NCBI RefSeq assembly: GCF_041248615.1
Contig: NZ_CP158426.1
DNA from: Escherichia coli
GTDB taxonomy: Bacteria; Pseudomonadota; Gammaproteobacteria; Enterobacterales; Enterobacteriaceae
Length of the DNA: 64,000 bases
Direction: 5' to 3' (one strand)
Notes under the pieces: generated by a model
What the model saw: the letters and a program-made list of their open reading frames with translations, nothing else
Database searches by the model: none
Told to the model about the DNA's origin: nothing
Shown here: in pieces, positions 17,071-47,418 of the stretch
How the letters are laid out: every line of letters starts with the position of its first letter
Numbering within the stretch: position 1 is the first letter of the stretch
Position numbers and translations under genes: made by a program

Positions 17071-18612
<1,542 letters not shown>

Positions 18613-18735
18613 AAAAGTTTGATGCTCAAAGAATTAAACTTCGTAATGAATTACGTGTTCACTCTTGAGACTTGGTATTCATTTTCGTCTTGCGACGTTA
18701 AGAATCCGTATCTTCGAGTGCCCACACAGATTGTC

Positions 18736-21631: not shown

Positions 21632-21872
21632 TGTAAAGCATCCACAATAGAAGAAGGATGCCGCAGGTTTCATCAATATTACGCGATGATGAGAACCAGA
21701 TGCGACGTTGGCCGGCAGGTCTTCGGGCTTGGAGGGGTATCTAAGATACTAAGAGATGATGACTTCCCACCGGATGGCAGTGTCCGCATAACGCAATCAT
21801 CGCACCTTTCCTTACCGCTGCGCGTCAGCTCCAGATTTGCACTGGATTCCCTATTAACTCACAGGACCGGCG
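21632..21872 (-). promoter_or_regulatory. cobalamin (B12) riboswitch in btuB 5' leader (approximate span)
   Basis: About 240-nt untranslated leader directly upstream of btuB, where the well-characterised B12 riboswitch lies; boundaries approximate, structure not folded here. Confidence 0.7.
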
Positions 21873-21999
21873 AGTGGATGCTACAGGTTGTAACAAGTTA
21901 CTGTCCAGACGTAGCTCACAAATAGGAATACATCAAGATCTGGACATCTGATGAGCAATCCCTACAATCGCCGCGTACTTTAATTTTTCAGGATACATC

Positions 22000-26876: not shown

Positions 26877-26986
26877 GAAACGGAGCGGCACCTCTTTTAA
26901 CCCTTGAAGTCACTGCCCGTTTCGAGAGTTTCTCAACTCGAATAACTAAAGCCAACGTGAACTTTTGCGGATCTCCAGGATCCGCT
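26877..26986 (+). ncRNA. oxyS: OxyS small regulatory RNA
   Basis: Sequence GAAACGGAGCGGCACCTCTTTTAACCCTTGAAGTCACTGCCCGTTTCGAGAGTTTCTCAACTCGAATAACTAAAGCCAACGTGAACTTTTGCGGATCTCCAGGATCCGCTTTTTTTTGCC, divergent from oxyR and ending in a hairpin plus T-run terminator. Confidence 0.9.
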
Positions 26987-31575: not shown

Positions 31576-31622
31576 AAAAGCAAATCAGGCTGATGACAAA
31601 GCCATGCAAGCGCACGGACAGT

Positions 31623-31659
31623 CCCCTCGCCCCTTCGGGGAGAGGGTTAGGGTGAGGGG
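31623..31659. repeat. GC-rich palindromic intergenic repeat (copy 1)
   Basis: cccctcgccccttcggggagagggttagggtgagggg; near-exact reverse complement of the copy at 47233-47269 and similar to 47170-47204. Confidence 0.6.
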
Positions 31660-31986
31660 AAAACCGTGCCCATACTGACCCGTAAGCGAGTTTGTCAGCA
31701 ATCTCAAATGATGCCCAAATGGTAACTACAACTCATAACTCTTTGGTGTTACTTGAGGCGATTTTTTAACATTTCCATAAGTTACGCTTATTTAAAGCGT
31801 CGTGAATTTAATGGCGTAAATTCCTGCTATTTATTCGTTTGCTGAAGCGATTTCGCAGCATTTGACGTCACCGCTTTTACGTGGCTTTATAAAAGACGAC
31901 GAAAAGCAAAGCCCGAGCATATTCGCGCCAATGCGACGTGAAGGATACAGGGCTATCAAACGATAAGATGGGGTGTCTGGGGTAAT

Positions 31987-34638
31987 ATGAACGAACAATA
32001 TTCCGCATTGCGTAGTAATGTCAGTATGCTCGGCAAAGTGCTGGGAGAAACCATCAAGGATGCGTTGGGAGAACACATTCTTGAACGCGTAGAAACTATC
32101 CGTAAGTTGTCCAAATCTTCACGCGCTGGCAATGATGCTAACCGCCAGGAGTTGCTCACCACCTTACAAAATTTGTCGAACGACGAGCTGCTGCCCGTTG
32201 CGCGTGCGTTTAGTCAGTTTCTGAACCTGGCCAACACCGCCGAGCAATACCACAGCATTTCGCCGAAAGGCGAAGCTGCCAGCAACCCGGAAGTGATCGC
32301 CCGCACCCTGCGCAAACTGAAAAACCAGCCGGAACTGAGCGAAGACACCATCAAAAAAGCAGTGGAATCGCTGTCGCTGGAACTGGTCCTCACGGCTCAC
32401 CCAACCGAAATTACCCGTCGTACACTGATCCACAAAATGGTGGAAGTGAACGCCTGTTTAAAACAGCTCGATAACAAAGATATCGCTGACTACGAACACA
32501 ACCAGCTGATGCGCCGCCTGCGCCAGTTGATCGCCCAGTCATGGCATACCGATGAAATCCGTAAGCTGCGTCCAAGCCCGGTAGATGAAGCCAAATGGGG
32601 CTTTGCCGTAGTAGAAAACAGCCTGTGGCAAGGCGTACCGAATTACCTGCGCGAACTGAACGAACAACTGGAAGAGAACCTCGGCTACAAACTGCCCGTC
32701 GAATTTGTTCCGGTGCGTTTTACCTCGTGGATGGGCGGTGACCGCGACGGCAACCCGAACGTCACTGCCGATATCACCCGCCACGTCCTGCTGCTCAGTC
32801 GCTGGAAAGCCACCGATCTGTTCCTGAAAGATATTCAGGTGCTGGTTTCTGAACTGTCGATGGTTGAAGCAACCCCTGAACTGCTGGCGCTGGTCGGCGA
32901 AGAAGGTGCCGCAGAGCCGTATCGCTATCTGATGAAAAACCTGCGTTCTCGCCTGATGGCGACACAGGCATGGCTGGAAGCGCGCCTGAAAGGCGAAGAA
33001 CTGCCAAAACCAGAAGGCCTGCTGACACAAAACGAAGAACTGTGGGAACCGCTCTACGCTTGCTACCAGTCCCTTCAGGCATGTGGCATGGGTATTATCG
33101 CCAACGGCGATCTGCTCGACACTCTGCGTCGCGTGAAATGTTTCGGCGTACCGCTGGTGCGCATTGATATCCGCCAGGAGAGCACCCGCCATACCGAAGC
33201 ATTGGGCGAGCTGACCCGCTATCTCGGCATCGGCGATTATGAAAGCTGGTCAGAGGCCGACAAACAGGCATTCCTGATCCGCGAACTGAACTCCAAACGT
33301 CCGCTTCTGCCGCGCAACTGGCAACCAAGCGCCGAAACGCGCGAAGTGCTCGATACCTGCCAGGTGATTGCCGAAGCACCGCAAGGCTCCATTGCCGCCT
33401 ACGTGATCTCGATGGCGAAAACGCCGTCCGACGTGCTGGCTGTCCACCTGCTGCTGAAAGAAGCGGGTATCGGCTTTGCGATGCCGGTTGCTCCGCTGTT
33501 TGAAACTCTCGATGACCTGAACAACGCCAACGATGTCATGACTCAGCTACTGAATATCGACTGGTATCGCGGCCTGATTCAGGGCAAACAGATGGTGATG
33601 ATTGGCTATTCCGACTCAGCAAAAGATGCGGGCGTGATGGCGGCTTCCTGGGCGCAATATCAGGCACAGGATGCATTAATCAAAACCTGCGAAAAAGCGG
33701 GTATTGAACTGACTCTGTTCCACGGTCGCGGCGGTTCCATTGGTCGCGGCGGCGCACCTGCTCATGCGGCGCTGCTGTCACAACCGCCAGGAAGCCTGAA
33801 AGGCGGCCTGCGCGTGACTGAACAGGGCGAGATGATCCGCTTTAAATATGGTCTGCCAGAAATCACCGTCAGCAGCCTGTCGCTGTACACCGGGGCGATT
33901 CTGGAAGCCAACCTGCTGCCACCACCTGAGCCGAAAGAGAGCTGGCGTCGCATTATGGATGAACTGTCAGTCATCTCCTGCGATCTCTACCGTGGCTACG
34001 TACGTGAAAACAAAGATTTTGTGCCTTACTTCCGCTCCGCTACGCCGGAACAGGAACTGGGCAAACTGCCGTTGGGTTCACGTCCGGCGAAACGTCGCCC
34101 GACTGGCGGCGTCGAGTCGCTGCGCGCCATTCCGTGGATCTTCGCCTGGACGCAAAACCGCCTGATGCTCCCCGCCTGGCTGGGTGCAGGTACGGCGCTG
34201 CAAAAAGTGGTCGAAGATGGCAAACAGAGCGAGCTGGAGGCTATGTGCCGCGATTGGCCATTCTTCTCGACGCGTCTCGGCATGCTGGAGATGGTCTTCG
34301 CCAAAGCAGACCTGTGGCTGGCGGAATACTATGACCAACGTCTGGTAGACAAAGCACTGTGGCCGTTAGGTAAAGAGTTACGCAATCTGCAAGAAGAAGA
34401 CATCAAAGTGGTGCTGGCGATTGCCAACGATTCCCATCTGATGGCCGATCTGCCGTGGATTGCAGAGTCTATTCAGCTACGGAATATTTACACCGACCCG
34501 CTGAACGTATTGCAGGCCGAGTTGCTGCACCGCTCCCGCCAGGCAGAAAAAGAAGGCCATGAGCCGGATCCTCGCGTCGAGCAGGCGTTAATGGTCACTA
34601 TTGCCGGGATTGCGGCAGGTATGCGTAATACCGGCTAA
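31987..34638 (+). CDS. ppc: phosphoenolpyruvate carboxylase
   Basis: 883-aa product [89 protein letters not shown]... ending ...AGMRNTG. Confidence 0.97.
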
Positions 34639-34654
34639 TCTTCCTCTCCTGCAA

Positions 34655-34685
34655 ACCCTCGTGCTTTTGCGCGAGGGTTTTCTGA
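34655..34685 (+). terminator. rho-independent terminator after ppc
   Basis: Hairpin aaccctcgtgc-tttt-gcgcgagggtttt followed by T-rich tract. Confidence 0.7.
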
Positions 34686-34820
34686 AATACTTCTGTTCTA
34701 ACACCCTCGTTTTCAATATATTTCTGTCTGCATTTTATTCAAATTCTGGATATCCCTTCAGATATCCTTAAGGAATTGTCGTTACATTCGGCGATATTTT
34801 TTTCAAGACAGGTTCTTACT

Positions 34821-36554
34821 ATGCATTCCACAGAAGTCCAGGCTAAACCCCTTTTTAGCTGGAAAGCCCTGGGTTGGGCACTGCTCTACTTTTGGTTTTT
34901 CTCTACTCTGCTACAGGCCATTATTTACATCAGTGGTTATAGTGGCACTAACGGCATTCGCGACTCGCTGTTATTCAGTTCGCTGTGGTTGATCCCGGTA
35001 TTCCTCTTTCCGAAGCGGATCAAAATTATTGCCGCAGTGATCGGCGTGGTGCTATGGGCGGCCTCTCTGGCGGCGCTGTGCTACTACGTCATCTACGGTC
35101 AGGAGTTCTCGCAGAGCGTTCTGTTTGTGATGTTTGAAACCAACACCAACGAAGCCAGCGAGTATTTAAGCCAGTATTTCAGCCTGAAAATTGTGCTTAT
35201 CGCGCTGGCCTATACGGCAGTGGCAGTTCTGCTGTGGACACGCCTGCGCCCGGTCTATATTCCAAAGCCGTGGCGTTATGTTGTCTCTTTTGCCCTACTT
35301 TATGGCTTGATTCTGCATCCGATCGCCATGAATACGTTTATCAAAAACAAGCCGTTTGAGAAAACGTTGGATAACCTGGCATCGCGTATGGAGCCTGCCG
35401 CACCGTGGCAATTCCTGACCGGCTATTATCAGTATCGTCAGCAACTAAACTCGCTAACAAAGCTACTGAATGAAAATAATGCCTTGCCGCCGCTGGCGAA
35501 TTTCAAAGATGAATCGGGTAACGAACCGCGCACTTTAGTGCTGGTGATTGGCGAGTCGACCCAGCGTGGCCGCATGAGTCTGTACGGTTATCCGCGTGAA
35601 ACCACGCCGGAGCTGGATGCGCTGCATAAAACCGATCCGAATCTGACCGTGTTTAATAACGTGGTGACGTCTCGTCCTTACACCATTGAAATACTGCAAC
35701 AGGCGCTGACCTTTGCCAATGAAAAGAACCCGGACCTGTACCTGACACAGCCGTCGCTGATGAACATGATGAAACAGGCGGGTTATAAAACCTTCTGGAT
35801 CACCAACCAGCAGACGATGACCGCCCGCAATACCATGCTGACGGTATTTTCGCGCCAGACCGACAAGCAGTACTACATGAACCAGCAACGTACGCAGAGT
35901 GCGCGTGAATACGACACCAACGTGCTGAAGCCGTTCCAGGAAGTGCTGAAGGACCCTGCGCCGAAGAAACTGATCATCGTTCATCTGCTGGGTACGCATA
36001 TCAAGTACAAGTACCGTTATCCGGAAGATCAGGGCAAATTTGACGGTAATACAGAGCATGTTCCACCGGGATTAAACGCAGAAGAGCTGGAGTCATATAA
36101 TGATTATGACAATGCTAACCTGTACAACGATCACGTGGTTGCCAGCCTGATTAAAGACTTTAAAGCAGCAGACCCGAACGGTTTCCTGGTTTATTTCTCT
36201 GACCACGGTGAAGAGGTTTACGACACGCCGCCGCACAAAACTCAGGGGCGTAATGAAGACAACCCGACGCGTCATATGTACACCATTCCGTTCCTGCTGT
36301 GGACGTCAGAAAAATGGCAAGCGACTCATCCGCGTGATTTCTCACAGGATGTTGATCGTAAATACAGCCTGGCGGAACTGATCCACACCTGGTCAGATTT
36401 GGCGGGCTTATCTTACGACGGTTACGATCCAACCCGTTCAGTGGTGAATCCGCAGTTCAAAGAAACTACCCGCTGGATTGGTAACCCGTACAAGAAAAAC
36501 GCGCTGATCGATTACGACACGCTGCCATATGGCGACCAGGTAGGTAATCAGTAA
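34821..36554 (+). CDS. eptC: phosphoethanolamine transferase (577 aa)
   Basis: Product from MHSTEVQAKPLFSWKALGWALLYFWFFSTLLQAIIYISGYSG... with N-terminal TM helices and C-terminal sulfatase-like domain; track ORF over-extended by 15 codons. Confidence 0.93.
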   Translation: MHSTEVQAKPLFSWKALGWALLYFWFFSTLLQAIIYISGYSGTNGIRDSLLFSSLWLIPVFLFPKRIKIIAAVIGVVLWAASLAALCYYVIYGQEFSQSVLFVMFETNTNEASEYLSQYFSLKIVLIALAYTAVAVLLWTRLRPVYIPKPWRYVVSFALLYGLILHPIAMNTFIKNKPFEKTLDNLASRMEPAAPWQFLTGYYQYRQQLNSLTKLLNENNALPPLANFKDESGNEPRTLVLVIGESTQRGRMSLYGYPRETTPELDALHKTDPNLTVFNNVVTSRPYTIEILQQALTFANEKNPDLYLTQPSLMNMMKQAGYKTFWITNQQTMTARNTMLTVFSRQTDKQYYMNQQRTQSAREYDTNVLKPFQEVLKDPAPKKLIIVHLLGTHIKYKYRYPEDQGKFDGNTEHVPPGLNAEELESYNDYDNANLYNDHVVASLIKDFKAADPNGFLVYFSDHGEEVYDTPPHKTQGRNEDNPTRHMYTIPFLLWTSEKWQATHPRDFSQDVDRKYSLAELIHTWSDLAGLSYDGYDPTRSVVNPQFKETTRWIGNPYKKNALIDYDTLPYGDQVGNQ

Positions 36555-36627
36555 ATGACCTTTGTATCGCGTCTGGCGCTATTTGCCGGATGCGATACTG
36601 TCGCAATGTTTACATCGAACTCCCCTC

Positions 36628-36656
36628 AGGCCACACTTTTCAGGTGGCCTTTTTTA
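36628..36656 (+). terminator. rho-independent terminator after eptC
   Basis: Hairpin aggccacac-tttt-caggtggcct followed by TTTTTT. Confidence 0.7.
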
Positions 36657-36702
36657 ATAATGCCAGTTACTGTTTTCTCGTCTACATACCTAAGGGAATA
36701 AC

Positions 36703-37554
36703 ATGTATCACGACGTCAGCTATCTGCTCTCCCGCCTGATCAACGGCCCGCTGTCCCTGCGCCAGATTTACTTTGCCAGCAGTAACGGCCCGGTGCCCGA
36801 TCTTGCGTATCAGGTCGATTTTCCACGACTGGAAATTGTGCTGGAAGGTGAGTTTGTTGATACCGGCGCTGGAGCAACGTTAGTTCCCGGCGATGTACTA
36901 TACGTTCCCGCTGGTGGCTGGAATTTTCCACAATGGCAAGCCCCCGCTACTACCTTTAGCGTGCTGTTTGGCAAACAGCAACTCGGCTTCAGCGTCGTGC
37001 AATGGGATGGCAAACAATATCAAAATCTGGCGAAGCAACACGTCGCCCGACGCGGCCCACGCATAGGTTCCTTTCTGCTACAAACGCTCAATGAAATGCA
37101 AATGCAGCCGCAGGAGCAGCAAACGGCAAGGCTTATCGTCGCCAGCCTGCTTAGCCACTGCCGCGATTTGCTTGGCAGCCAAATCCAGACCGCCTCACGC
37201 AGCCAGGCACTATTCGAAGCTATTCGCGATTATATCGACGAACGCTATGCCTCCGCGCTTACCCGCGAATCTGTCGCACAGGCATTCTATATTTCGCCAA
37301 ATTACCTCTCGCACCTGTTTCAAAAAACGGGGGCCATTGGTTTTAACGAATACCTGAATCACACGCGACTGGAGCACGCTAAGACGTTATTGAAAGGCTA
37401 TGACCTGAAGGTAAAAGAAGTGGCGCACGCCTGCGGCTTTGTCGACAGCAACTACTTCTGCCGTCTGTTTCGTAAAAATACCGAACGCTCACCGTCGGAA
37501 TATCGTCGGCAGTACCACAGCCAACTGACAGAAAAACCGACTACTCCAGAATGA
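36703..37554 (+). CDS. yijO: AraC/XylS-family transcriptional regulator
   Basis: 283-aa product MYHDVSYLLSRLINGPLSLRQIYFASSNGPVPDLAYQVDFPRLEIVLEGEFVD... with C-terminal AraC-type HTH (...NYFCRLFRKNTERSPSEYRRQY). Confidence 0.92.
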   Translation: MYHDVSYLLSRLINGPLSLRQIYFASSNGPVPDLAYQVDFPRLEIVLEGEFVDTGAGATLVPGDVLYVPAGGWNFPQWQAPATTFSVLFGKQQLGFSVVQWDGKQYQNLAKQHVARRGPRIGSFLLQTLNEMQMQPQEQQTARLIVASLLSHCRDLLGSQIQTASRSQALFEAIRDYIDERYASALTRESVAQAFYISPNYLSHLFQKTGAIGFNEYLNHTRLEHAKTLLKGYDLKVKEVAHACGFVDSNYFCRLFRKNTERSPSEYRRQYHSQLTEKPTTPE

Positions 37555-37882
37555 GATGGGTTTGCTGCGGCGCAGAAAGCACTTTGCGTACCGCGCTCAT
37601 CACCCGCTGCGGCTCACGCAGGAAAGCGTAGATGCTGCATTGCACATAGCGGCAATGTTCAAATCGCTCAGCACCGGCAAGCTCGATATCCGTAATCAAC
37701 AGCGCAACATCCGCCCGGCGGATATCCTCGTCCGCTAAACGATTCTCCGTTCCCAACGCGCCCTGGGTTTCAATGCTGACGCCCCACTTCTCTAACTGGC
37801 ACAACTTTTCCAGCCGTTCCGCCGCCATATATGTATGCGCCACGCCGCTTACGCAGGCGGTTACTGCCACCAGGTATGCCAT
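37541..37882 (-). CDS. frwD: PTS fructose-like EIIB component 2 (113 aa)
   Basis: Product from MAYLVAVTACVSGVAHTYMAAERLEKLCQLEKWGVSIETQGALGTENRLADEDIRRADVALLITDIEL...; track ORF over-extended by 28 codons; 14-bp convergent overlap with yijO. Confidence 0.9.
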   Translation of the reverse strand: MAYLVAVTACVSGVAHTYMAAERLEKLCQLEKWGVSIETQGALGTENRLADEDIRRADVALLITDIELAGAERFEHCRYVQCSIYAFLREPQRVMSAVRKVLSAPQQTHLILE

Positions 37883-37883
37883 T

Positions 37884-38762
37884 TTAACCTCCCACGGTAA
37901 CCTGAAATCCGGCCCATTCTGCCATTTCACGCATCGTTGCCACATCGGCTGACGACGGCGCAGCAACCTCTTTCATCGACCATGTTTTCCCCAGCAGGCG
38001 GTATTTCGGCTCGCCGTACTGATGAAACGGTAACAGATGGATCTGCTTGATATTCAGCGGGATCAGCACGTCCAGCGCCTGCTGCATATTCTCCCGGCTG
38101 AGCGTGAAACCAGGGATCAGCGGTAAACGCGGGATCACGTTGACGCCCTCACTCACCAGCAAACGCAGATTCTCCAGCACGCGTGGCAGATTCATCTTCA
38201 CCACATCCCGCGCCTGAGTCGCGTCCATAATTTTTAAATCGAACAACACTTCATCGCACAATTTCGCCAGCGGTAGCAGCTTGCTGGCTGGCGCGTCTCC
38301 GGCAGTTTCAATGGCGCATGACACGCCCCACAACCGCAGCCGCTGTAAAAAACGGGTAGCAAACTCCGCCTGCATTAACACTTCGCCGCCAGAAAGCGTG
38401 ACGCCGCCGCCGGACGTGCGAAAGAAAATGTCATCTTTCATCACTTCACGTTCCAGCGCGTCAAGGCTGATATCGCGGCCAATCCGTTCAAACGCCCCGG
38501 AGGGGCATTCATCCGCATCACGCAAACATTTCGCACAGTGCAGACATTTCGCCTCTCTGCGTACCGTCTGGATTTTGCCGGAGATCGACTCCGGATTAGC
38601 ACACCATGGGCAAAGATGCGGACAGCCTTTAAAAAAGACCACCGTACGAATGCCCTCGCCGTCATTCAGTGAATAACGCTGAATGTTGAAAATGCGCGCC
38701 ACATCATTGCGGCGCGTTTCCACAACGTTACAGCTGATGCGCTGTCCGGCGGATGATGTCAT
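37884..38762 (-). CDS. pflC: pyruvate formate-lyase 2 activating enzyme (radical SAM, 292 aa)
   Basis: Product from MTSSAGQRISCNVVETRRNDVARIFNIQRYSLNDGEGIRTVVFFKGCPHLCPWCANPESIS... (CxxxCxxC radical-SAM cluster motif); start overlaps pflD 3' end. Confidence 0.93.
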   Translation of the reverse strand: MTSSAGQRISCNVVETRRNDVARIFNIQRYSLNDGEGIRTVVFFKGCPHLCPWCANPESISGKIQTVRREAKCLHCAKCLRDADECPSGAFERIGRDISLDALEREVMKDDIFFRTSGGGVTLSGGEVLMQAEFATRFLQRLRLWGVSCAIETAGDAPASKLLPLAKLCDEVLFDLKIMDATQARDVVKMNLPRVLENLRLLVSEGVNVIPRLPLIPGFTLSRENMQQALDVLIPLNIKQIHLLPFHQYGEPKYRLLGKTWSMKEVAAPSSADVATMREMAEWAGFQVTVGG

Positions 38763-41025
38763 CCTGGATCTCCTTCGACAATTCGACAAAGAAGGCGCTG
38801 TATCCGGCAACGCGCACCACCAGCCCGGCATAATCTTGTGGGCGCTGTTGCGCTTCCCGCAACGTGTCGGCGTTCACCACGTTAAACTGAATGTGTTGTA
38901 ACTTAAGCTGGGTAAATGCCCGTAAGAAGTCGGCCAGTTTGCGTAATCCCGCTTCACCTTCCAGGGTCGCCGGAGTGAATTTCACGTTCAGCAACGTACC
39001 GTTAGACAGCAGCGTATTATCGAGCTTACTGACTGACTTCAGTACCGCCGTTGGCCCTTGTGCGTCCTGACCCAGCATAGGTGACAAGCCGCCGTCTGCC
39101 AGTTGTTCCCCGGCAAAACGACCGTCTAGCGTCGCGCCAACCACCGATCCCAACGGGACGTGAGCAGAAACGGTATACGATCCCGGCGTGAAGTAGCCGC
39201 CGCGCGGGTTCTGGTATTTTTCCACTTCTTTGCAGTAGTGGCGTAACAGTTCGGCGCTGATGTTATCCACCTCGTCGATATCGTTACCGTATTTCTCGAA
39301 GCGGTTAATTAAGCGAGCACGGACTTTTTCGCCTTCTGGCGTTGCGAAGTTGGCTTTTAATACCGACAGCAATTCGTCAAAACTTAAACGCTGTTGCTCA
39401 AAAATCATACCTTTCAACGCATGGAGAGAATCGCTCAGGTTGGCGATACCGATCCCCTGTACGCCGGAGAAGTTATAACGCGCACCGCCATCGGTAATAT
39501 CGCGGCCTTTTTCCAGACAATCGCTGATAAAAGACGAGAGCAGCGGTACAGGTGCCCAGTCACGGTGACCGATATCGCAAATATTGCTGCCCTCAACCAT
39601 CAGGGTGATGTAGTGGCTGATCTTGGCGCGGATCTGCTCCAGTAAACCTTCATAAGTCAGCGCAGCATTGCCTTCATTTTCATGCAGGCAGATTTCCATC
39701 ACTTTCAGCAGATTAAACATCGCGATGTCATGCAAGCCGTAGGTTCTGCCGGGAATAGATAATTCCACACAGCCCACTACGGAATAGTCGCGCGCATCTT
39801 CCAGCGAAACGCCACGGTTGAGGAACGCTGGCACTACCACTTCATCGTTAAAGATTTGCGGAATACCGGTGCCGAGGCGAATGGTTTCTGCGGTTTTCAT
39901 CAGGAACGGCGTGTCGATCAAGGCGTTAGTGCGCACCCCCAGGTTCGGTTGCGGTAATTGCACGCTTTGATAAGCGTCAAGGCAAAGGAACGAAAGCACG
40001 TTCACCGCGCTACGTCCGTTCTCGGTTAACCCGCCGAGCAGTGCGGTATAGCCGGTCGGGAAACCGGCGAAATAACGCGCGCTACTGGTGGAGCGCAACA
40101 GCACGATGTCGTTGCATTTCACCCATAAAGATTCGAGCAGTTCTTTCAGGAACGCCGGATCTTCGCCCTGGGTTAAAGATGCCTGATAGAACGGCAACAT
40201 ATACTGGTCGAAGCGCCCTAAAGACAGCGAACTGGCGTTGGATTCGTATTGCAGAATGATGTTCATGTACCAGAATAACTGGCACGCCTGCCAGAACGTC
40301 TGCGGCTTATGTTCGGCGTTATGGCGAGAGATCTCCGCAATAGTCAGCAGTTCTTCGCGACGCTGGGCATCTGTGCAGTTTGCCGCCATCGTTTCCGCCA
40401 GTTCGGCGTAACGCAAAATGTGTTTCTGCGAGGCTTCGAGCAGTAACAGCGCTGCCTGATAAAAGTGATTCTCCGGCTGTTGCTGACAATGTTGCTGCAT
40501 CTGCGCTACCAGCTCACCCAGCCCGTGATTCAGCAGGCGCGGGTAATCAATAATAATGTGCCCCTGGCCTTTATCCGTCTGGTTGATGCTGAAAATCTGC
40601 GTGCTGGTCGCGGCTTTTACTTCATCCGTCATCTGCCCGTTGATGAAATCTTTCATCGAACGTTTTTCCCAGTACGGGAACAACTCTTCACGGTAGATAC
40701 GTTTATCTTCTTCGCTGATAGCAAAGCGGTCCTGCGGACGCGTCGGGAATTGATCCAGCTCTTTCAGCAGCCAGTAAGGGTCCATTTCCGGCGACATAAT
40801 TCCGGCGCGCGGTTTCACCGTACGGTTACCGGCAATCAGTTCTTCATCACGAATCGATATTTCAACATGTTCAAGGATATACGCTGTTGCTTTCGCCCGG
40901 CGCAATATCACCGGTTCGCCTTCGGTTTGCCGATGGCTGGCGGTATAAAGCAGCGCCCGCTCCAGCGAGATTTCACGGGTATTGGCAAACAGTGCAGTTT
41001 TGAGGCGAGAGATACGATTCGTCAT
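38728..41025 (-). CDS. pflD: pyruvate formate-lyase-like glycyl radical enzyme
   Basis: 765-aa product MTNRISRLKTALFANTREISLERALLYTASHRQTEGEPVILRRAKATAYILEHVEISIRDEELIAGNRTVKPRAG... with C-terminal glycyl radical motif region (...VVRVAGYSAFFVELSKEIQDDIIRRTAHQL). Confidence 0.96.
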   Translation of the reverse strand: MTNRISRLKTALFANTREISLERALLYTASHRQTEGEPVILRRAKATAYILEHVEISIRDEELIAGNRTVKPRAGIMSPEMDPYWLLKELDQFPTRPQDRFAISEEDKRIYREELFPYWEKRSMKDFINGQMTDEVKAATSTQIFSINQTDKGQGHIIIDYPRLLNHGLGELVAQMQQHCQQQPENHFYQAALLLLEASQKHILRYAELAETMAANCTDAQRREELLTIAEISRHNAEHKPQTFWQACQLFWYMNIILQYESNASSLSLGRFDQYMLPFYQASLTQGEDPAFLKELLESLWVKCNDIVLLRSTSSARYFAGFPTGYTALLGGLTENGRSAVNVLSFLCLDAYQSVQLPQPNLGVRTNALIDTPFLMKTAETIRLGTGIPQIFNDEVVVPAFLNRGVSLEDARDYSVVGCVELSIPGRTYGLHDIAMFNLLKVMEICLHENEGNAALTYEGLLEQIRAKISHYITLMVEGSNICDIGHRDWAPVPLLSSFISDCLEKGRDITDGGARYNFSGVQGIGIANLSDSLHALKGMIFEQQRLSFDELLSVLKANFATPEGEKVRARLINRFEKYGNDIDEVDNISAELLRHYCKEVEKYQNPRGGYFTPGSYTVSAHVPLGSVVGATLDGRFAGEQLADGGLSPMLGQDAQGPTAVLKSVSKLDNTLLSNGTLLNVKFTPATLEGEAGLRKLADFLRAFTQLKLQHIQFNVVNADTLREAQQRPQDYAGLVVRVAGYSAFFVELSKEIQDDIIRRTAHQL

Positions 41026-41075
41026 GAGGAACTCCTGTGGGAAAGCGAACCCGCCCTTACGGGCGGGATAAGAAC

Positions 41076-41396
41076 TTAAGCGGTTTGTGCCAGGTGAGCT
41101 TCAATTTTGCTCATAATGGCATCAGCGCGTTTTACCGCGTCGCTGATGTTGACGCGCACGATGGTCTTGCCAGCAAAACGCTCTTCAAACTTGATGCCGA
41201 TATCTTTGGTCAGAATCACCATATCGGCGCTCGCCACGTCTTCCGCAGTCAGTTCATTTTCCAGACCAATCGAGCCCTGGGTTTCTACTTTCACTTCCCA
41301 GCCTTTCGCTTTCGCGGCACTTTCCAGCGCCTCTGCCGCCATATAGGTATGGGCAACACCAGATGGACACGCGGTTACTGCAATAATTTTCGTCAT
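41076..41396 (-). CDS. frwB: PTS fructose-like EIIB component 1
   Basis: 106-aa product MTKIIAVTACPSGVAHTYMAAEALESAAKAKGWEVKVETQGSIGLENELTAEDVASADMVILTKDIGIKFEERFAGKTIVRVNISDAVKRADAIMSKIEAHLAQTA. Confidence 0.95.
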   Translation of the reverse strand: MTKIIAVTACPSGVAHTYMAAEALESAAKAKGWEVKVETQGSIGLENELTAEDVASADMVILTKDIGIKFEERFAGKTIVRVNISDAVKRADAIMSKIEAHLAQTA

Positions 41397-41410
41397 GGCT
41401 CGTTCCTCAA

Positions 41411-42490
41411 TTAATTAATTTCAAAATCCAAATCCAGGTCGTCTTCTTTTTCATCAGTCGAAGACCCATTATTACGCGCCAGACTTTTCAGCACGTTCAC
41501 GCAGACTGCCGTCACAACCGCCCCGACAGCCACTGCTGCGATATAACCCAGCTTGCCTTCAACCACCGGCAGCACAATCAGACCGCCCCAGCCTGCATAG
41601 CACTGCGCACCGACCAGCGCCGCAGTTACTGCACCACAAACTGAACCGACCATGATGGAAGGAATAACACGCAGCGGATCGGCAGCGGCGAAAGGAATCG
41701 CCCCTTCAGTAACCCCAACGCACCCCATCACCAACGCCGCCTTGCCGGTTTCGCGCTCTTCTGCGGAGAAATTTTTACGACCAATCAGCGTCGCCAGCCC
41801 CATCCCCAGCGGCGGGATACAAATACCCACGGCAGCAATGGCCACCACGGTATATACACCCTGAGCAACGCAAATCAGCATGAAGGCATAGGCCACTTTG
41901 TTAACCGGACCGCCCATATCGAACGCCAGCATCAGACCCATGATCACCGCCAGCATAACAATGCTGCCCTGCTGCATCCCCTGAAGCCACTGAGTCAGGC
42001 TGTTGGTCAATGCCCCCACAGGCTCGCCCAGCCCCCACATCATGATGCCTGCGGTAATCAGTGTGCCGACGATCGGAATGATGAAGATTGGCATCACCGA
42101 GCGCAGAACTTTATGCACCGGAATTTTCTTCAGGTAATGCACCACGATGCCGCCAATAATCCCGGCGATCAGCGCACCAAAGAAGCCCGCACCAAAGCTG
42201 TTGCCGACCCAGGCACCGATAGCGCACGGGGCCAGCGCAGAGCGTTCTGCAATGGAATAACCAATGTAAGCAGCGAGGAAAGGCACCATCAGCGTCAAAC
42301 CTGCAACGCCGATATCAAACAGTTTTTTCAGATTCGGATCGGCTACGGCATCCGGCACTGCGCCTTTGCCATACAACATGACGGAAACCGCCAGCAAAAT
42401 ACCGCCCGATACCACGAAGGGAATCATGTGTGAAACGCCCGTCATTAAGTGCTGACGGGTATTTTTCAGGATCTGCACCAACTCATTCAT
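41411..42490 (-). CDS. frwC: PTS fructose-like EIIC permease (359 aa)
   Basis: Polytopic membrane product from MNELVQILKNTRQHLMTGVSHMIPFVVSGGILLAVSVMLYGKGAVPDAVADPNLKKLFDIGVAG...; track ORF over-extended by 7 codons. Confidence 0.93.
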   Translation of the reverse strand: MNELVQILKNTRQHLMTGVSHMIPFVVSGGILLAVSVMLYGKGAVPDAVADPNLKKLFDIGVAGLTLMVPFLAAYIGYSIAERSALAPCAIGAWVGNSFGAGFFGALIAGIIGGIVVHYLKKIPVHKVLRSVMPIFIIPIVGTLITAGIMMWGLGEPVGALTNSLTQWLQGMQQGSIVMLAVIMGLMLAFDMGGPVNKVAYAFMLICVAQGVYTVVAIAAVGICIPPLGMGLATLIGRKNFSAEERETGKAALVMGCVGVTEGAIPFAAADPLRVIPSIMVGSVCGAVTAALVGAQCYAGWGGLIVLPVVEGKLGYIAAVAVGAVVTAVCVNVLKSLARNNGSSTDEKEDDLDLDFEIN

Positions 42491-42798
42491 AAGCTGCTCC
42501 CGGGCTTGCAAAAGCCCATGTCCATATTTTTGATGGAGGAAACAATAGGCAATCGCAGGCGGAGCAAACAGTGGATAAAAAGGCCATTTACTGGACTTTT
42601 GTAATATCAGTACAAAAATGCGATCCGCCTCATAACTTGCGGCAACCCGGAAGCATGCCGCAAAACGGCGTCTTGTGAGACGCGTCGCAAATTGACGGTT
42701 ACATTACATTTGTCCAGCTTTTGGCAGATTTGTCACATGGCAGGCCGTTGCCGTGCGCTCTTATCCTGTAAACAGAAAACCGTACCGGGAGAGAGGCA

Positions 42799-45300
42799 AT
42801 GGCCCTGATTGTGGAATTTATTTGTGAGCTACCTAACGGCGTACATGCGCGCCCGGCAAGCCACGTTGAAACGCTGTGTAATACTTTTTCATCACAAATT
42901 GAGTGGCATAACCTGCGCACTGACCGCAAGGGCAACGCCAAAAGCGCCCTTGCGCTGATTGGCACCGATACGCTGGTGGGCGATAACTGCCAGTTACTGA
43001 TTTCCGGGGCCGACGAACAGGAAGCGCACCAGCGTTTAAGCCAATGGCTGCGCGATGAATTCCCCCACTGCGACGCACCGCTGGCGGAAGTAAAATCTGA
43101 CGAACTGGAACCACTGCCGGTTTCACTGACCAATCTGAATCCGCGAATTATCCGCGCCCGCACCGTGTGCAGCGGTAGCGCAGGCGGCATTCTGACGCCG
43201 ATCTCTTCTTTAGATCTCAATGCGCTGGGTAATCTTCCCGCTGCCAAAGGCGTTGATGCCGAACAATCCGCACTGGAAAACGGCCTGACGCTGGTACTGA
43301 AAAACATAGAGTTTCGTCTGCTGGATAGCGACGGTGCTACCAGCGCGATTCTGGAAGCGCACCGATCCCTGGCTGGCGATACTTCCCTGCGCGAACATTT
43401 ACTGGCAGGCGTCAGCGAGGGATTAAGCTGTGCCGAAGCGATTGTCGCCAGTGCACACCACTTCTGCGAAGAGTTCGCCCGTTCCAGCAGCAGCTACCTG
43501 CAAGAACGCGCCCTGGACGTACGCGACGTCTGCTTCCAGTTACTCCAGCAAATCTACGGTGAGCAACGCTTCCCGGCACCGGGCAAACTGACGCAGCCCG
43601 CCATTTGTATGGCTGATGAACTAACCCCCAGCCAGTTCCTCGAACTGGATAAAAATCACCTCAAAGGATTGTTGCTCAAAAGCGGCGGCACCACCTCACA
43701 TACCGTAATTCTTGCCCGTTCGTTCAACATTCCGACGCTGGTTGGTGTGGATATTGATGCCCTTACCCCGTGGCAACATCAAACGATTTATATCGACGGC
43801 AACGCCGGAGCGATTGTGGTTGAGCCAGGGGAAGCCGTAGCCCGTTATTATCAGCAAGAAGCCCGCGTACAGGATGCCCTGCGTGAGCAACAGCGTGTCT
43901 GGCTGACCCAACAAGCCCGTACCGCTGATGGTATCCGCATTGAAATTGCTGCTAACATCGCTCACTCCGTGGAAGCGCAGGCCGCATTCGGCAATGGTGC
44001 GGAAGGAGTTGGTTTGTTCCGCACTGAAATGCTCTATATGGATCGCACCAGCGCACCGGGCGAAAGCGAGCTGTACAACATTTTTTGTCAGGCGCTGGAG
44101 TCCGCCAACGGACGCAGCATTATTGTGCGCACTATGGATATTGGCGGTGACAAACCCGTTGATTATCTGAACATTCCCGCAGAGGCAAACCCGTTCCTCG
44201 GTTATCGCGCCGTGCGTATTTATGAAGAGTACGCGTCGTTATTTACCACACAACTACGGTCGATTCTCCGTGCCTCCGCTCACGGCAGCCTGAAAATCAT
44301 GATCCCGATGATCTCTTCAATGGAAGAGATCTTATGGGTGAAAGAAAAACTGGCGGAAGCCAAACAGCAACTGCGCAATGAACATATTCCGTTTGATGAG
44401 AAGATCCAGCTTGGCATCATGCTTGAAGTGCCGTCGGTGATGTTCATCATCGATCAATGCTGTGAAGAGATTGATTTCTTTAGTATTGGTAGTAATGACC
44501 TGACGCAATATCTGCTGGCAGTAGATCGCGATAACGCTAAGGTTACTCGTCACTACAACAGCCTGAATCCGGCATTCTTACGGGCGCTCGATTACGCCGT
44601 GCAGGCGGTGCATCGCCAGGGCAAATGGATTGGTCTGTGCGGTGAACTGGGAGCGAAAGGTTCCGTGCTGCCGTTGCTGGTCGGTTTAGGGCTGGATGAG
44701 CTGAGCATGAGCGCACCATCAATTCCGGCGGCGAAAGCGCGGATGGCGCAACTTGATAGCCGCGAATGCCGCCAGTTGCTCAACCAGGCAATGGCCTGCC
44801 GTACTTCGCTGGAAGTGGAACACCTGCTGGCGCAATTCCGCATGACCCAACAGGACGCGCCGCTGGTCACCGCCGAGTGCATCACGCTGGAAAGCGACTG
44901 GCGCAGCAAAGAAGAAGTGCTGAAAGGCATGACCGATAACCTGCTACTGGCGGGCCGCTGCCGCTATCCGCGTAAACTGGAAGCCGACTTGTGGGCACGC
45001 GAGGCCGTTTTCTCTACCGGTCTGGGCTTTAGTTTTGCCATTCCCCACAGCAAATCGGAACATATTGAGCAATCCACCATCAGCGTAGCGCGTCTGCAAG
45101 CGCCGGTGCGCTGGGGCGATGATGAAGCACAATTCATCATTATGTTAACCCTGAACAAACATGCTGCGGGCGATCAGCACATGCGCATTTTCTCGCGCCT
45201 CGCTCGCCGCATCATGCACGAAGAATTCCGTAACGCGCTGGTTAACGCCGCCTCTGCCGACGCTATCGCCAGCCTGCTGCAACATGAACTGGAACTGTAA
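42799..45300 (+). CDS. ptsA: multiphosphoryl transfer protein (EI / HPr / EIIA-Fru fusion)
   Basis: 833-aa product [88 protein letters not shown]...; divergent from frwC. Confidence 0.95.
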
Positions 45301-45311
45301 AAGGAAACATC

Positions 45312-45974
45312 ATGGAACTGTATCTGGACACCGCTAACGTCGCAGAAGTCGAACGTCTGGCACGTATATTCCCGATTGCCGGGGTGACAACTAACCCGAG
45401 CATTATCGCTGCCAGCAAGGAGTCCATCTGGGAAGTGCTGCCGCGCCTGCAAAAAGCGATCGGTGATGAGGGCATTCTGTTTGCTCAGACCATGAGCCGT
45501 GATGCGCAGGGAATGGTGGAAGAAGCGAAGCGCCTGCGCGACACCATTCCGGGCATTGTGGTTAAAATCCCGGTGACTTCCGAAGGTCTGGCAGCAATTA
45601 AAATACTGAAAAAAGAGGGTATTACTACACTTGGCACCGCTGTATATAGCGCCGCACAAGGGTTATTAGCCGCACTGGCAGGGGCAAAATACGTTGCTCC
45701 GTATGTTAACCGCGTAGATGCCCAGGGCGGAGACGGCATTCGTACGGTTCAGGAGCTGCAAGCGCTGTTAGAAATGCACGCACCAGAAAGCATGGTGCTG
45801 GCGGCCAGCTTTAAAACGCCGCGTCAGGCGCTGGACTGTTTACTGGCAGGATGTGAATCCATCACCCTGCCCTTAGATGTAGCGCAACAAATGCTCAACA
45901 CCCCTGCGGTAGAGTCAGCTATAGAGAAGTTCGAACACGACTGGAATGCCGCATTTGGCACTACTCATCTCTAA
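45312..45974 (+). CDS. fsaB: fructose-6-phosphate aldolase 2
   Basis: 220-aa product [113 protein letters not shown]... Confidence 0.96.
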
Positions 45975-45984
45975 AGGAGCAATT

Positions 45985-47088
45985 ATGGACCGCATTATTC
46001 AATCACCGGGTAAATACATCCAGGGCGCTGATGTGATTAATCGTCTGGGCGAATACCTGAAGCCGCTGGCAGAACGCTGGTTAGTGGTGGGTGACAAATT
46101 TGTTTTAGGTTTTGCTCAATCCACTGTCGAGAAAAGCTTTAAAGATGCTGGACTGGTAGTAGAAATTGCGCCGTTTGGCGGTGAATGTTCGCAAAATGAG
46201 ATCGACCGTCTGCGTGGCATCGCGGAGACTGCGCAGTGTGGCGCAATTCTCGGTATCGGTGGCGGAAAAACTCTCGATACTGCCAAAGCACTGGCACATT
46301 TCATGGGTGTTCCGGTAGCGATCGCACCGACTATCGCCTCTACCGACGCACCGTGCAGCGCATTGTCTGTTATCTACACCGATGATGGTGAATTTGACCG
46401 CTATCTGATGTTGCCAAATAACCCGAATATGGTCATTGTCGACACCAAAATCGTCGCTGGCGCACCTGCACGTCTGTTAGCGGCGGGTATCGGCGATGCG
46501 CTGGCAACCTGGTTTGAAGCACGCGCCTGTTCCCGTAGCGGCGCGACCACTATGGCGGGCGGCAAGTGTACCCAGGCGGCGCTGGCACTGGCAGAACTGT
46601 GCTACAACACTCTGCTGGAAGAAGGCGAAAAAGCGATGCTTGCCGCCGAACAGCATGTAGTGACTCCGGCGCTGGAGCGCGTGATTGAAGCGAACACCTA
46701 TTTGAGCGGCGTTGGTTTTGAAAGCGGCGGGCTGGCGGCGGCTCACGCGGTGCATAACGGCCTGACCGCTATCCCGGACGCGCATCACTATTACCACGGT
46801 GAAAAAGTGGCATTTGGTACGCTGACGCAGCTGGTTCTGGAAAATGCGCCGGTGGAGGAAATCGAAACCGTAGCTGCACTTAGCCATGCGGTAGGTTTGC
46901 CAATAACTCTCGCTCAACTGGATATTAAAGAAGATGTCCCGGCGAAAATGCGAATTGTGGCAGAAGCGGCATGTGCAGAAGGTGAAACCATCCACAACAT
47001 GCCTGGCGGCGCGACGCCAGATCAGGTTTACGCTGCACTGCTGGTAGCCGACCAGTACGGTCAGCGTTTCCTGCAAGAGTGGGAATAA
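45985..47088 (+). CDS. gldA: glycerol dehydrogenase (367 aa)
   Basis: Product from [76 protein letters not shown]...; track ORF over-extended by 13 codons. Confidence 0.95.
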
Positions 47089-47096
47089 CCTACTCC

Positions 47097-47123
47097 AAAC
47101 TCCCGGATTGTCCGGGAGTTTGA
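47097..47123 (+). terminator. rho-independent terminator after gldA
   Basis: Hairpin caaactcccgg-attg-tccgggagtttg within 10 bp of gldA stop. Confidence 0.7.
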
Positions 47124-47169
47124 GAGTGCAGGCAAAGTGGCTCACTCGTCACTGCGGGCATGTTTTTCC

Positions 47170-47269
47170 CCCTCGCCCTTTCAGGGAGAGGGTCGGGATG
47201 AGGGTAAATATTCGCCCCGGAGCTGGCCTGTTCCCCTCACCCTAACCCTCTCCCCAAAGGGGAGAGGGG
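47170..47269. repeat. pair of GC-rich palindromic intergenic repeats (copies 2 and 3) in inverted orientation
   Basis: ccctcgccctttcagggagagggtcgggatgaggg (47170-47204) and cccctcaccctaaccctctccccaaaggggagagggg (47233-47269); the second is the reverse complement of the 31623-31659 copy. Confidence 0.6.
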
Positions 47270-47418
47270 ACTGTTCGAGCACTTTTTATACGTTATCACC
47301 CGTCTGAAACTCACACGTTGTTCAGGAATTTTTTATCCGCTTCTGGACATTTTCTCTACAGAACAATCGTTAGCCCGGAAGGTCGAATCTGTGACTCTTA
47401 TTTTCACGGACGAACCAG

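Follow-up and report, generated by a model that had tools for sequence, protein, structure and literature searches.

Three short GC-rich palindromic repeats lie between genes in a 64,000-nt stretch of Escherichia coli DNA (the window), one downstream of argE and two downstream of gldA, which raises the questions of whether they constitute a new repeat family and whether they serve the genes beside them. The original prediction described an element at 31623-31659 (+) that recurs as a variant at 47170-47204 (+) and as its reverse complement at 47233-47269 (-); a gap of 28 nt (47204 to 47233) separates the latter two, which are inverted relative to each other, and no family was named with certainty. 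Sequence comparison confirmed the three elements and their arrangement, and comparison with catalogued families supplied the name: all three are ordinary members of boxC, also known as PIT (potential intrastrand triplex) or TMECO, and not a new family (Table 1). boxC is a non-coding repeat that is interspersed in the genomes of E. coli and of numerous other bacteria.

Table 1. Features of the argE-ppc and gldA-yijF intergenic regions; positions are counted from the first letter of the window.
Feature	Position	Strand	Description
Allele-specific segment, argE-ppc	31578..31740	.	163 nt, from the argE stop to the conserved ppc upstream region
boxC/TMECO copy 1	31613..31669	+	Type A with one stem mismatch ('A mm'); 3′ of argE
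Copy 1 three-block core	31623-31659	+	CCCCTCGCCCC ttc GGGGAGAGGG tta GGGTGAGGGG
Strong hairpin after gldA	47091..47121	+	17 bp, from the RNA fold; directly 3′ of the gldA stop (47086-47088)
Allele-specific segment, gldA-yijF	47124..47302	.	179 nt, holds the boxC pair
boxC copy 2	47168..47204	+	Type B-like, second loop TCG; blocks CCCCCTCGCCC tttca GGGAGAGGG tcg GGATGAGGG
Spacer of the gldA pair	47205..47232	.	28 nt, between the inward-facing third blocks ('tails')
boxC copy 3	47233-47269	-	Type A, perfect stem; minus-strand blocks CCCCTCTCCCC ttt GGGGAGAGGG tta GGGTGAGGGG

Family identity of the three repeats

The published TMECO consensus is CCCTCNCCC-N3-6-GGGNGAGGG-N3-GGGNGAGGG (Holder et al. 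2015, PMC4666352). Copy 1 (31624-31658, +) and copy 3 (47234-47268, -) match it exactly, with no match in 100 shuffles, and copy 2 (47170-47204) falls outside the strict pattern by a single base, a G to A change in its third block (GGATGAGGG) which breaks one triad; at the same site, the sister strain TCM3e1 carries the canonical GGGGTGAGGG. The copies also resemble each other directly. The 37-mer at 31623-31659 (+) was found again at 47233-47269 (-) with 2 mismatches (0 matches in 100 shuffles), copy 2 (47169-47208) shares 85% identity with copy 1 across 40 nt, and a relaxed two-block pattern hit exactly three window sites, 31638-31658 (+), 47184-47204 (+) and 47234-47254 (-), with none in shuffles. 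Similarity among the copies extends slightly beyond 37 nt, and the core of copy 1 is enclosed by a 6-nt inverted repeat, GCACGG (31613-31618) and CCGTGC (31664-31669), this bracketing stem also being formed in the RNA fold. All three copies are intergenic, with copy 1 beginning 47 nt downstream of the argE stop (31573-31575).

The three-block anatomy of boxC, with the first G block as pairing partner of the C-rich block, was recovered for the window copies. In the triad test the second G block mirrors the first, with G·G:C, A·A:T and T·A:T as allowed triads. Parsed in this way, copy 1 has a 10-bp hairpin interrupted by a single G.A mismatch, and all its purine-motif triads are allowed (10 of 10, 0 bad); copy 3 has neither stem mismatches nor bad triads, and copy 2 has one of each. 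Loop types agree as well: TMECO loops are of type A (TTA) or type B (CCG-like) (PMC4666352), and the gldA pair combines TCG (47168-47204, +, B-like) with TTA (47233-47269, -, A), in accordance with the pairs in the published K-12 table (Table 1 of that work). The likeness to boxC/PIT/TMECO hence covers consensus, three-block anatomy, A (TTA) and B (CCG/TCG) loops, inverted A + B pairs separated by some 16-28 nt, intergenic position, about 20 copies per genome and strain-variable loci. Nothing essential differs; copy 2 departs from the pattern by one base, and K-12 has no boxC at either locus.

A genome-wide count showed the repeats to be multi-copy, with a median of 19 boxC places per E. coli genome (range 1-34); 94,160 places were chromosomal and 61 on plasmids. 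Published BoxC copy numbers in E. coli are 22-32, and K-12 has 23 TMECO copies, often as inverted type A + type B pairs (PMC4666352). Furthermore, TMECO no. 514 of E. coli 042 (Table S8), between yijF and gldA, is identical to copy 3 (PMC4666352), and one of the two loci was thus already in published tables. That the family is special, or cannot be named, is not supported. The finding itself is already known; it rediscovers a family first catalogued in 1992 and investigated further in work of 2000, 2002 and 2015, the older literature (Bergler 1992; Bachellier 1999; Hoyne 2000, 2002) being represented here as it is cited in PMC4666352 and PMC2267715. TMECO elements have no positional or orientation bias relative to genes (PMC4666352). 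The original prediction had allowed that members of a catalogued family without positional bias would be ordinary, and that is how they turned out, with the absence of bias taken from the same source.

Rfam 15 returned nothing at gathering thresholds for the three elements. Matches of microRNA models to the gldA pair (29 bits against thresholds of 72-94) were rejected as typical of any long hairpin.

boxC and REP/BIME alleles at the same two slots

Both loci are polymorphic across 5,426 E. coli genomes, from which the population frequencies of the two boxC alleles were drawn. The argE-ppc boxC allele occurs in 284 of these (5%); apart from the boxC copy it contains about 125 nt, which are single-copy. 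In most E. coli the slot contains 1, 2 or about 6 REP units. Without the core, the flanks of copy 1 were found once per genome, in 289 genomes only and at this locus only, hence the repeat is confined to the core (about 50 nt), and the whole segment of ~160 nt is ruled out as the repeat unit. The gldA-yijF boxC allele was detected in 640 genomes (12%), with most E. coli, including K-12, having in its place a BIME of about 123 nt with two inverted REPs. K-12 lacks boxC at both loci, and approximately 90-95% of E. coli genomes have REP/BIME in these slots instead.

The two loci are clean whole-segment allelic replacements between unrelated families, boxC and REP/BIME, in identical slots. No empty-site allele was seen at either slot among the genomes sampled, and alignments read by eye showed no direct repeats at the boundaries 47123/47124, 47302/47303, 31577/31578 and 31740/31741. 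TMECO sites have been linked to raised local and intergenic sequence variability (PMC4666352), and the polymorphism at both window loci fits this link, which bears on the role of recombination substrate suggested in the original prediction.

We consider it most probable (roughly 0.85) that the window elements are boxC copies without a dedicated local function, likely relics of selfish or neutral repeats residing in repeat-tolerant slots. The boxC core of about 36 nt comprises three blocks: one is C-rich, the next is its G-rich complement and the last, again G-rich, mirrors the first; as the C-rich block and its complement lie in one strand a hairpin can form, and the third block may lie along this hairpin as a purine-motif triple helix, as described in the literature for oligonucleotides in vitro. 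The two copies after gldA represent the inverted type B + type A arrangement that is customary for boxC. We infer no dedicated function for argE, ppc, gldA or yijF, and the copies are most likely left over from a selfish or neutral repeat family in intergenic slots which appear to tolerate repeats and turn them over; in the source strain, boxC-bearing segments occupy both slots. Nothing speaks against membership of the family, and the lack of a function is presumed rather than demonstrated. In addition, the boxC core is nearly identical across phyla, which is hard to square with neutral junk and implies either a sequence-specific constraint or recent spreading.

DUF559 nuclease genes and boxC motifs

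An alternative which we regard as possible, but only tentatively, is that boxC motifs serve a very widespread selfish cassette, which carries a DUF559 (Vsr-like PD-(D/E)XK) nuclease gene, as its cis-acting ends or as its homing sites. The gldA pair (B+, 28 nt, A-) would in that case be either a cassette without its gene or a target site that is empty, and a solo copy, like that after argE, would be a relic in a more advanced state of decay.

The association between DUF559 and boxC is itself well supported, with DUF559 genes (ycjD in E. coli) flanked by, or ending in frame inside, boxC-like motifs in many lineages, and with an inverted arrangement like that of the gldA pair in many cases. Seven DUF559 genes were present in 1.09 Mb of loci fetched for their boxC cores, and in six the 3′ end lay no more than 22 nt from a boxC block, against a rough chance expectation of about 0.2 for such adjacency. 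The only DUF559 gene of K-12, ycjD, ends inside a degenerate boxC and adjoins the boxC upstream of fabI (envM), which is Holder's TMECO no. 9. The same gene-boxC junction occurs at two loci, sapF-fabI (E. coli) and hemW-yggN (Enterobacter, Pluralibacter and RIT691), and a boxC-encoded C-terminal peptide (e.g. ...LPSPRPSP) was detected in 89 of the 120 closest YcjD relatives. Applying a strict peptide pattern to the best 150 of 48,956 DUF559 representatives, 116 of which had a recognisable domain, we found boxC-like peptides in the C-terminal (n = 41) or N-terminal (n = 23) extensions of these 116, compared to 36 of 626 control ORFs near boxC cores.

Seven further DUF559 genes were chosen for their absent tails, and six of them had CCCTCTCCC/GGGAGAGGG hairpins within 55 nt, in four cases with one hairpin on each side in inverted orientation. 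At L133, L137 and L138 (also L061) the third blocks face the gene, which is the geometry of the gldA pair, and in an AT-rich rumen MAG a 126-aa DUF559 gene lies between perfect 57-nt inverted repeats containing the core. Motif orientation relative to the gene varies, however, with third blocks pointing outward at L026, direct repeats at L028 and motifs only at the 3′ side in enterobacteria. Among sampled E. coli, the median number of other boxC places was 20 in ycjD-positive versus 3.5 in ycjD-negative genomes, a difference confounded by phylogeny; strains matching the window are ycjD-negative and still have about 15 boxC copies. A DUF559 protein of Caulobacter damages DNA in vivo, although its authors read it as a mismatch-repair enzyme (PMC12907096).

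Evidence for such a cassette within the window itself is negative: tblastn with six DUF559 proteins (E <= 1e-3) found no DUF559 gene or remnant in the window, including the allele-specific flanks. No target-site duplications were seen, and nucleases on their own are not known to act as transposases. The window copies are at most gene-less relics or targets of the proposed cassette. When translated in frame, the spacer preceding the B copy (...EYLPSSRPSP-stop) bears only a vague likeness to DUF559 tails, and this reading was dropped. Viral contigs gave no support for carriage by phages, with 72 loci having the G-rich half, 19 having a complete core and none having a DUF559 gene. We found no literature linking DUF559/ycjD/PF04480 to boxC in a search with limited coverage of subscription journals, and a prior report is possible.

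By analogy, the association suggests a relationship like that of REP and RAYT. For RAYT it is established that a genome has one such nuclease-type gene with its own repeats on either side; for DUF559 this is a proposal. The enzymes differ, RAYT being a transposase of the HUH Y1 type that has been shown to act on REPs and DUF559 a Vsr-like PD-(D/E)XK nuclease with a proposed boxC partnership. A second parallel, drawn from the literature only, is the I-Bth0305I family of free-standing homing endonuclease genes, which are likewise small genes for a Vsr-like-fold nuclease embedded at a specific sequence and which show that selfish spread can be driven by Vsr-like nucleases. A difference is the location of these genes, within phage-gene introns or inteins. 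The association makes the origin and cross-phyla spread of these near-identical motifs testable. If the cassette is real, boxC would acquire an enzyme for its mobility or maintenance, which Holder et al. (2015, PMC4666352) had sought in vain, and DUF559 (about 49,000 representative clusters) would gain a biological context.

DNA and RNA structure at the two loci

The original prediction was that the gldA pair, downstream of the gldA terminator, could form a long cruciform or RNA hairpin. Copies 2 and 3 constitute an inverted repeat with 39-nt arms (47169-47207 and 47231-47269, 79% complementary), which folds far better than shuffles as RNA (-106.9 kcal/mol, z = -6.4) and also as DNA (z = -3.6) in tools that model Watson-Crick pairs only. 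The two copies are predicted to be able to pair with one another, as a hairpin or cruciform spanning about 100 nt. The pair does lie downstream of gldA, beyond the 17-bp hairpin that follows the stop. This hairpin is common to the boxC and BIME alleles, with the variable segment starting immediately after it, but it lacks a T-run and went uncalled in a simple scan for terminators, and 'gldA terminator' is a label rather than a result.

A second alternative, that the elements act as non-B DNA structures (intrastrand triplex, G-quadruplex or cruciform) which stall replication or promote recombination and thereby generate local variability, appears doubtful. Copies 1 and 3 have perfect triad compatibility, the G-rich half is a canonical four-tract G-quadruplex motif, and near-identical oligonucleotides form an intramolecular triplex in vitro, as determined by CD and NMR (PMC4666352). 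The published variability around TMECO sites and the complete segment replacement at both window loci would also be consistent with such a role. Conversely, DMS footprinting detected no triplex protection in vivo, and the duplex formed once the complementary strand was present (PMC4666352). The variability may equally reflect a permissive slot, since REP/BIME copy number at argE-ppc ranges from 1 to about 6 without boxC.

A role in RNA is improbable. According to this idea, the elements would be functional 3′-UTR or intergenic RNA structures that stabilise the argE and gldA transcripts against 3′ exonucleases or aid termination, as REP/BIME do elsewhere. REP/BIME stabilise mRNA, and they occupy the two slots of most strains; moreover, the argE and gldA sites are each immediately 3′ of a coding region, and the predicted structure in which the boxC pair extends the hairpin 3′ of gldA is very stable. 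A stable hairpin just 3′ of the gldA 3′ hairpin could protect the transcript. The solo argE copy with its flanks, however, folds only marginally better than shuffles (z = -2.0), and the lack of positional and orientation bias in the family argues against such a role. As for termination, the scan called none of the three elements and no stem is followed by a T-run, hence an identity as intrinsic (Rho-independent) terminators is rejected for all three. Hoyne & Maher (2002), as cited in PMC4666352, are reported to have observed neither promoter nor terminator activity and no effect on RNA polymerase, in tests that concerned other K-12 copies and not the argE-ppc or gldA-yijF loci.

Relation to REP/BIME and MITEs

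boxC and REP/BIME resemble each other in being short GC-rich palindromic intergenic repeats, often in inverted pairs, and they share the same two slots; their sequences are unrelated, and REP lacks a third block. The REP (PU) consensus reportedly given by Stern et al. in 1984 is GCC(G/T)GATGCG(G/A)CG(C/T)...(G/A)CG(T/C)CTTATC(C/A)GGCCTAC. The RefSeq K-12 record has no repeat features annotated at argE-ppc or gldA-yijF, hence REP identity was established by consensus matching instead, and the alternative alleles at both slots match this consensus with 0-5 substitutions. That the window elements are diverged units of REP/BIME, or belong to some other enterobacterial repeat already catalogued (ERIC/IRU, RSA), is next to inconceivable: they are intergenic, GC-rich and palindromic and their slots hold REPs in other strains, but the consensus has no match across the 64-kb window with up to 5 substitutions allowed, which rules out REP membership and upholds the distinction from canonical REP made at the outset, boxC and BIME segments do not align, and a systematic published survey treats BoxC, ERIC and PU-BIME as separate E. 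coli families.

Compared to MITEs, boxC showed no target-site duplication and has no known transposase, conservation is confined to its arms, and the E. coli copies are embedded in single-copy sequence. Nevertheless, the gldA pair constitutes an inverted-arm unit measuring about 100-180 nt, and longer repeated elements in Pseudomonas and Enterobacter have boxC cores as their arms or in their interior. Indeed, a genome of another genus, Pseudocitrobacter, carries an 85%-identical pair, spacer included, at a different, non-homologous locus downstream of thiI.

Family identity of the three repeats

The three elements in the window are boxC, a repeat that was found again as the PIT (potential intrastrand triplex) element and subsequently received the name TMECO. 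They form a genuine set, as first proposed: the 37-mer of copy 1 recurs on the opposite strand as copy 3 with two mismatches, with 0 matches in 100 dinucleotide-preserving shuffles, and a relaxed two-block pattern returned exactly three sites, adding 47184-47204 (+) within the variant copy 2, which is 85% identical to copy 1 (repeat finder, 47169-47208). Copies 1 and 3 match exactly the published TMECO consensus, CCCTCNCCC-N3-6-GGGNGAGGG-N3-GGGNGAGGG (Holder et al. 2015, PMC4666352), so that the family, which the original prediction had considered impossible to name with certainty, can be named. Copy 2 departs from the consensus at one base, a G->A substitution in block three (the second G-rich block), where strain TCM3e1 has the canonical base. 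Block parsing gave copy 1 a 10-bp stem carrying a single G.A mismatch (the “A mm” type) and copy 3 a perfect stem, with allowed purine-motif triads at 10/10 third-strand positions in both.

According to Holder et al., MG1655 has 23 copies, intergenic without exception, in two variants with loop TTA (type A) or CCG (type B), and K-12 has five inverted A+B pairs (PMC4666352). The gldA pair, formed by copies 2 and 3, has the layout B(+), 28 nt, A(-), as do four of these five. Across 5,426 complete E. coli genomes, the median number of places matched by a 162-nt query around copy 1 was 19 per genome, almost all chromosomal; an independent survey, which treats BoxC, ERIC and PU-BIME as distinct families, found 22 copies of BoxC vs 32 in the literature and gives its length as 56 bp. 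The sequence of copy 3 is identical to TMECO no. 514 of E. coli 042, positioned between yijF and gldA (Table S8, PMC4666352), hence both the family and one of the two loci were already catalogued. The finding is ordinary on the original prediction's own terms, since boxC is a catalogued repeat and Holder et al. report no preference for any orientation, distance or class of neighbouring gene. The element thus belongs to a long-known family without demonstrated function, with the gldA-yijF locus already published, and the remaining value of the finding lies in a testable lead to DUF559 genes and in two loci at which boxC alleles stand cleanly in place of REP ones.

Positions of boxC copies, variable segments, boxC-associated loci and other annotated features (L-numbers label sequence loci fetched around boxC cores or DUF559 genes)
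Feature	Position or loci	Strand	Remark
boxC copy 1	31623-31659	+	after argE
boxC copy 2	47170-47204	+	variant, between gldA and yijF
boxC copy 3	47233-47269	-	between gldA and yijF
argE-ppc variable segment	boxC allele 31578-31740; after GCATTAAAA, before CTTTGGTG		same boundaries for boxC and REP alleles
gldA-yijF variable segment	boxC-pair allele 47124-47302; between GGGAGTTTGA and TCTGAAAC		same boundaries for boxC and BIME alleles
DUF559 genes flanked by or ending in-frame inside boxC-type motifs	L026, L028, L051, L061, L083, L110, L126, L131, L132-L141		many unrelated lineages
Composite repeat	L010-L024, L045-L048, L057-L064		Pseudomonas spp.; ~170 nt, two-armed
Enterobacter element	L036 5590-6040 and 12 similar loci		Enterobacter cloacae, E. 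asburiae, Enterobacter sp. MGH 24; ~430 bp, intergenic, repeated
OxyS sRNA	26877-26986	+	Rfam, gathering threshold
Cobalamin riboswitch	21697-21886	-	Rfam, gathering threshold
Cluster of four tRNAs	9694-10132	-	Rfam, gathering threshold
P26 match	4529-4590	-	Rfam, gathering threshold

Extent, predicted structure and function

The repeated part reaches only a few bases beyond the core. The 125 nt flanking copy 1, with the core removed, occur once per genome, only at this locus, in 289 genomes, and among 44 enterobacterial type-A copies conservation covers ~12 nt 5' of the core (roughly g..ccgaaC.gTt) and 3 nt 3' (aAa), an extent in agreement with the length given for boxC, 50-56 bp. The copy-1 core is surrounded by a 6-nt inverted repeat, GCACGG / CCGTGC.

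The inverted pair was recovered as a 39-nt inverted repeat, 79% complementary (repeat finder), and the 28-nt gap and the placement relative to argE and gldA were as originally described. Predicted folds also agree with the long hairpin that had been proposed for the pair: 47089-47310 as RNA gave -106.9 kcal/mol (z = -6.4) with copies 2 and 3 base-paired together, and 47160-47280 as DNA gave z = -3.6, while copy 1 on its own with flanks folds marginally (z = -2.0). The gldA terminator said to precede the pair fared less well, as a strong hairpin is present in the fold at ~47091-47121 but there is no T-run and the terminator scan made no call. The G-rich half also qualifies as a canonical four-tract G-quadruplex motif; for near-identical oligonucleotides a triplex was shown in vitro and none was detected in vivo, according to PMC4666352.

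Hoyne & Maher 2002, as cited in PMC4666352, found no promoter or terminator activity, no RNA polymerase effect and no conjugation effect. Because these activity tests and the published bias analyses were negative, our working explanation is that boxC would be a repeat, selfish or neutral, whose structural potential is strong and which is lodged in repeat-tolerant slots. For the gldA pair, a candidate role in 3'-UTR protection is possible.

Allelic replacement of REP and BIME

The boxC alleles are in the minority at both loci. At argE-ppc the window's boxC allele is present in only 284 of 5,426 E. coli genomes, and the alternatives in the genomes sampled are one REP, one BIME or, in K-12, ~6 REPs. 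The boxC-pair allele at gldA-yijF is present in 640 of the 5,426, with a two-REP BIME in the other genomes sampled, K-12 included. The boxC segments cannot be aligned with the REP segments, and the genomes sampled include none with an empty allele at either slot. The element is distinct from canonical REP, as first suggested: no REP consensus match (≤5 substitutions) occurs in the whole 64-kb window, and at the same threshold K-12 has at least six matches in the two slots (five at argE-ppc, one at gldA-yijF). Strain 042 combines the gldA pair with a REP at argE-ppc, hence the boxC alleles of the two loci are not strictly linked. Segment replacement of this kind is the “intergenic change” class, enriched at TMECO sites according to Holder et al. 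2015 (PMC4666352), with no mention of the REP counterpart in the text consulted. The window's argE-ppc allele and the K-12 inter-BIME linker have the short motif CTCAAATGATGCCCAA in common.

Distribution beyond E. coli

An exact search with the type-A core (33 specified bases, one genome per species) returned at least 120 loci. The matches listed include Enterobacteriaceae, Pseudomonas, Stutzerimonas, Methylophaga, Devosia, Asticcacaulis and Azospirillum, and also MAGs labelled Kuenenia (Planctomycetota), Chloroflexota/Anaerolineae and Troglogloeales, and an AT-rich rumen MAG (L065-L066, L069, L096, L098, L025-L027). Holder et al. counted 3,610 copies in 262 proteobacterial genomes (PMC4666352), and the non-proteobacterial matches would extend this 2015 “proteobacterial” range, with MAG contamination possible except for the rumen MAG, which is exempt because its flanks are AT-rich.

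The core is embedded in different longer repeats, each lineage-specific. The Pseudomonas composite has a type-B-like boxC arm and a type-A arm facing outwards, a conserved ~95-nt spacer and short extra inverted termini (AGATCCA / TGGATCT), with at least 15 copies in one genome. The Enterobacter element possesses its own terminal inverted repeats (GGGCTGAGGGATCCCCA ... TGGGGAACCCTCAGCCC), has a type-A core near one end and gave no match in Rfam; its copies break draft assemblies at contig ends. In a Pseudocitrobacter MAG, an A+B pair downstream of thiI (L119 130-400) shares 85% identity with the gldA pair across 161 nt, a length that takes in the spacer and short flanks. As this locus is non-homologous, the pair moves, or has moved, as a unit, and appears to behave as a transposable or convertible one.

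DUF559 nuclease genes beside boxC

Clustering of ORFs near boxC cores across lineages gave one recurrent family, DUF559 (PF04480, Pfam E down to 1e-43), Vsr-like PD-(D/E)XK nucleases of ~120 aa. Seven DUF559 genes were detected in 1.09 Mb of boxC-core loci, six with a boxC block ≤22 nt from the 3' end and three with blocks on both sides; the rough chance expectation for such adjacency is ~0.2. The DUF559-boxC association is solid. By analogy, boxC may stand to DUF559 as REP does to RAYT, the transposase tied to it, a reading we hold tentatively, with a probability of little more than one in three.

The only DUF559 gene of K-12, ycjD, ends ...RRSPSP* within a degenerate boxC stem (L131 2030-2850; NC_000913.3 ~1351030-1351850). 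Downstream lie a duplicated remnant of the DUF559 3' end and then an intact type-A boxC upstream of fabI (envM). The latter is probably the original box C of Bergler et al. 1992. Holder et al. 2015 list it as TMECO no. 9 (PMC4666352). A boxC-encoded tail, typically ...LPSPRPSP, ends 89 of the 120 closest YcjD relatives (best 120), most tailed relatives having only ~55-65% protein identity to YcjD and their genes occurring at two or more different loci. A tail-free DUF559 profile returned 48,956 representatives, and of the best 150 the domain was recognisable in 116; by a strict pattern, boxC-like peptides occurred in the C-terminal extension of 41 and the N-terminal extension of 23 of these, with 36/626 in control ORFs chosen near boxC cores. 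Further such peptides are visible by eye in DUF559 extensions beyond the strict pattern.

Among seven DUF559 representatives picked for absence of boxC-like tails, six had CCCTCTCCC/GGGAGAGGG hairpins, often with a third block, ≤55 nt from the gene, and four had a hairpin on each side in inverted orientation. Third blocks face the DUF559 gene in L133, L137, L138 and also L061, matching the layout of the gldA pair. In the AT-rich rumen MAG RUG14125 (L026 6960-7460), a 126-aa DUF559 gene lies between perfect 57-nt inverted repeats made up of a T/A run, ATGTAATAATTGTA and a boxC core, and the arrangement looks like a minimal IS-like unit of ~470 bp.

Several points count against boxC and DUF559 forming a cassette. 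The orientation of the motif relative to the gene is not uniform, and strains like the window's are ycjD-negative yet have kept ~15 boxC copies; no DUF559 gene or remnant is present in the 64-kb window. Of the 5,426 E. coli genomes, 3,377 carry ycjD, and among the genomes sampled the number of other boxC places was 14-32 (median 20) in ycjD-positive versus 1-18 (median 3.5) in ycjD-negative genomes, a comparison confounded by phylogeny; B2 strains among the sampled ycjD-negative genomes had 1-3. According to a 2026 paper, phylogroups A, B1 and C have ycjD at fabI-sapF in place of the eefRABCD operon, and a Caulobacter DUF559 protein causes DNA damage in vivo (PMC12907096). No published link between DUF559 and boxC was found in the literature searched.

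Other features of the window

The OxyS, cobalamin riboswitch, tRNA cluster and P26 matches are expected in this E. coli region. An rrn operon is located at 13600-18612 (-) with 5S, 23S, a tRNA and 16S, and a 53-nt inverted repeat (17016-17068 / 18698-18750, repeat finder) brackets the 16S gene, presumably as the RNase III processing stem.
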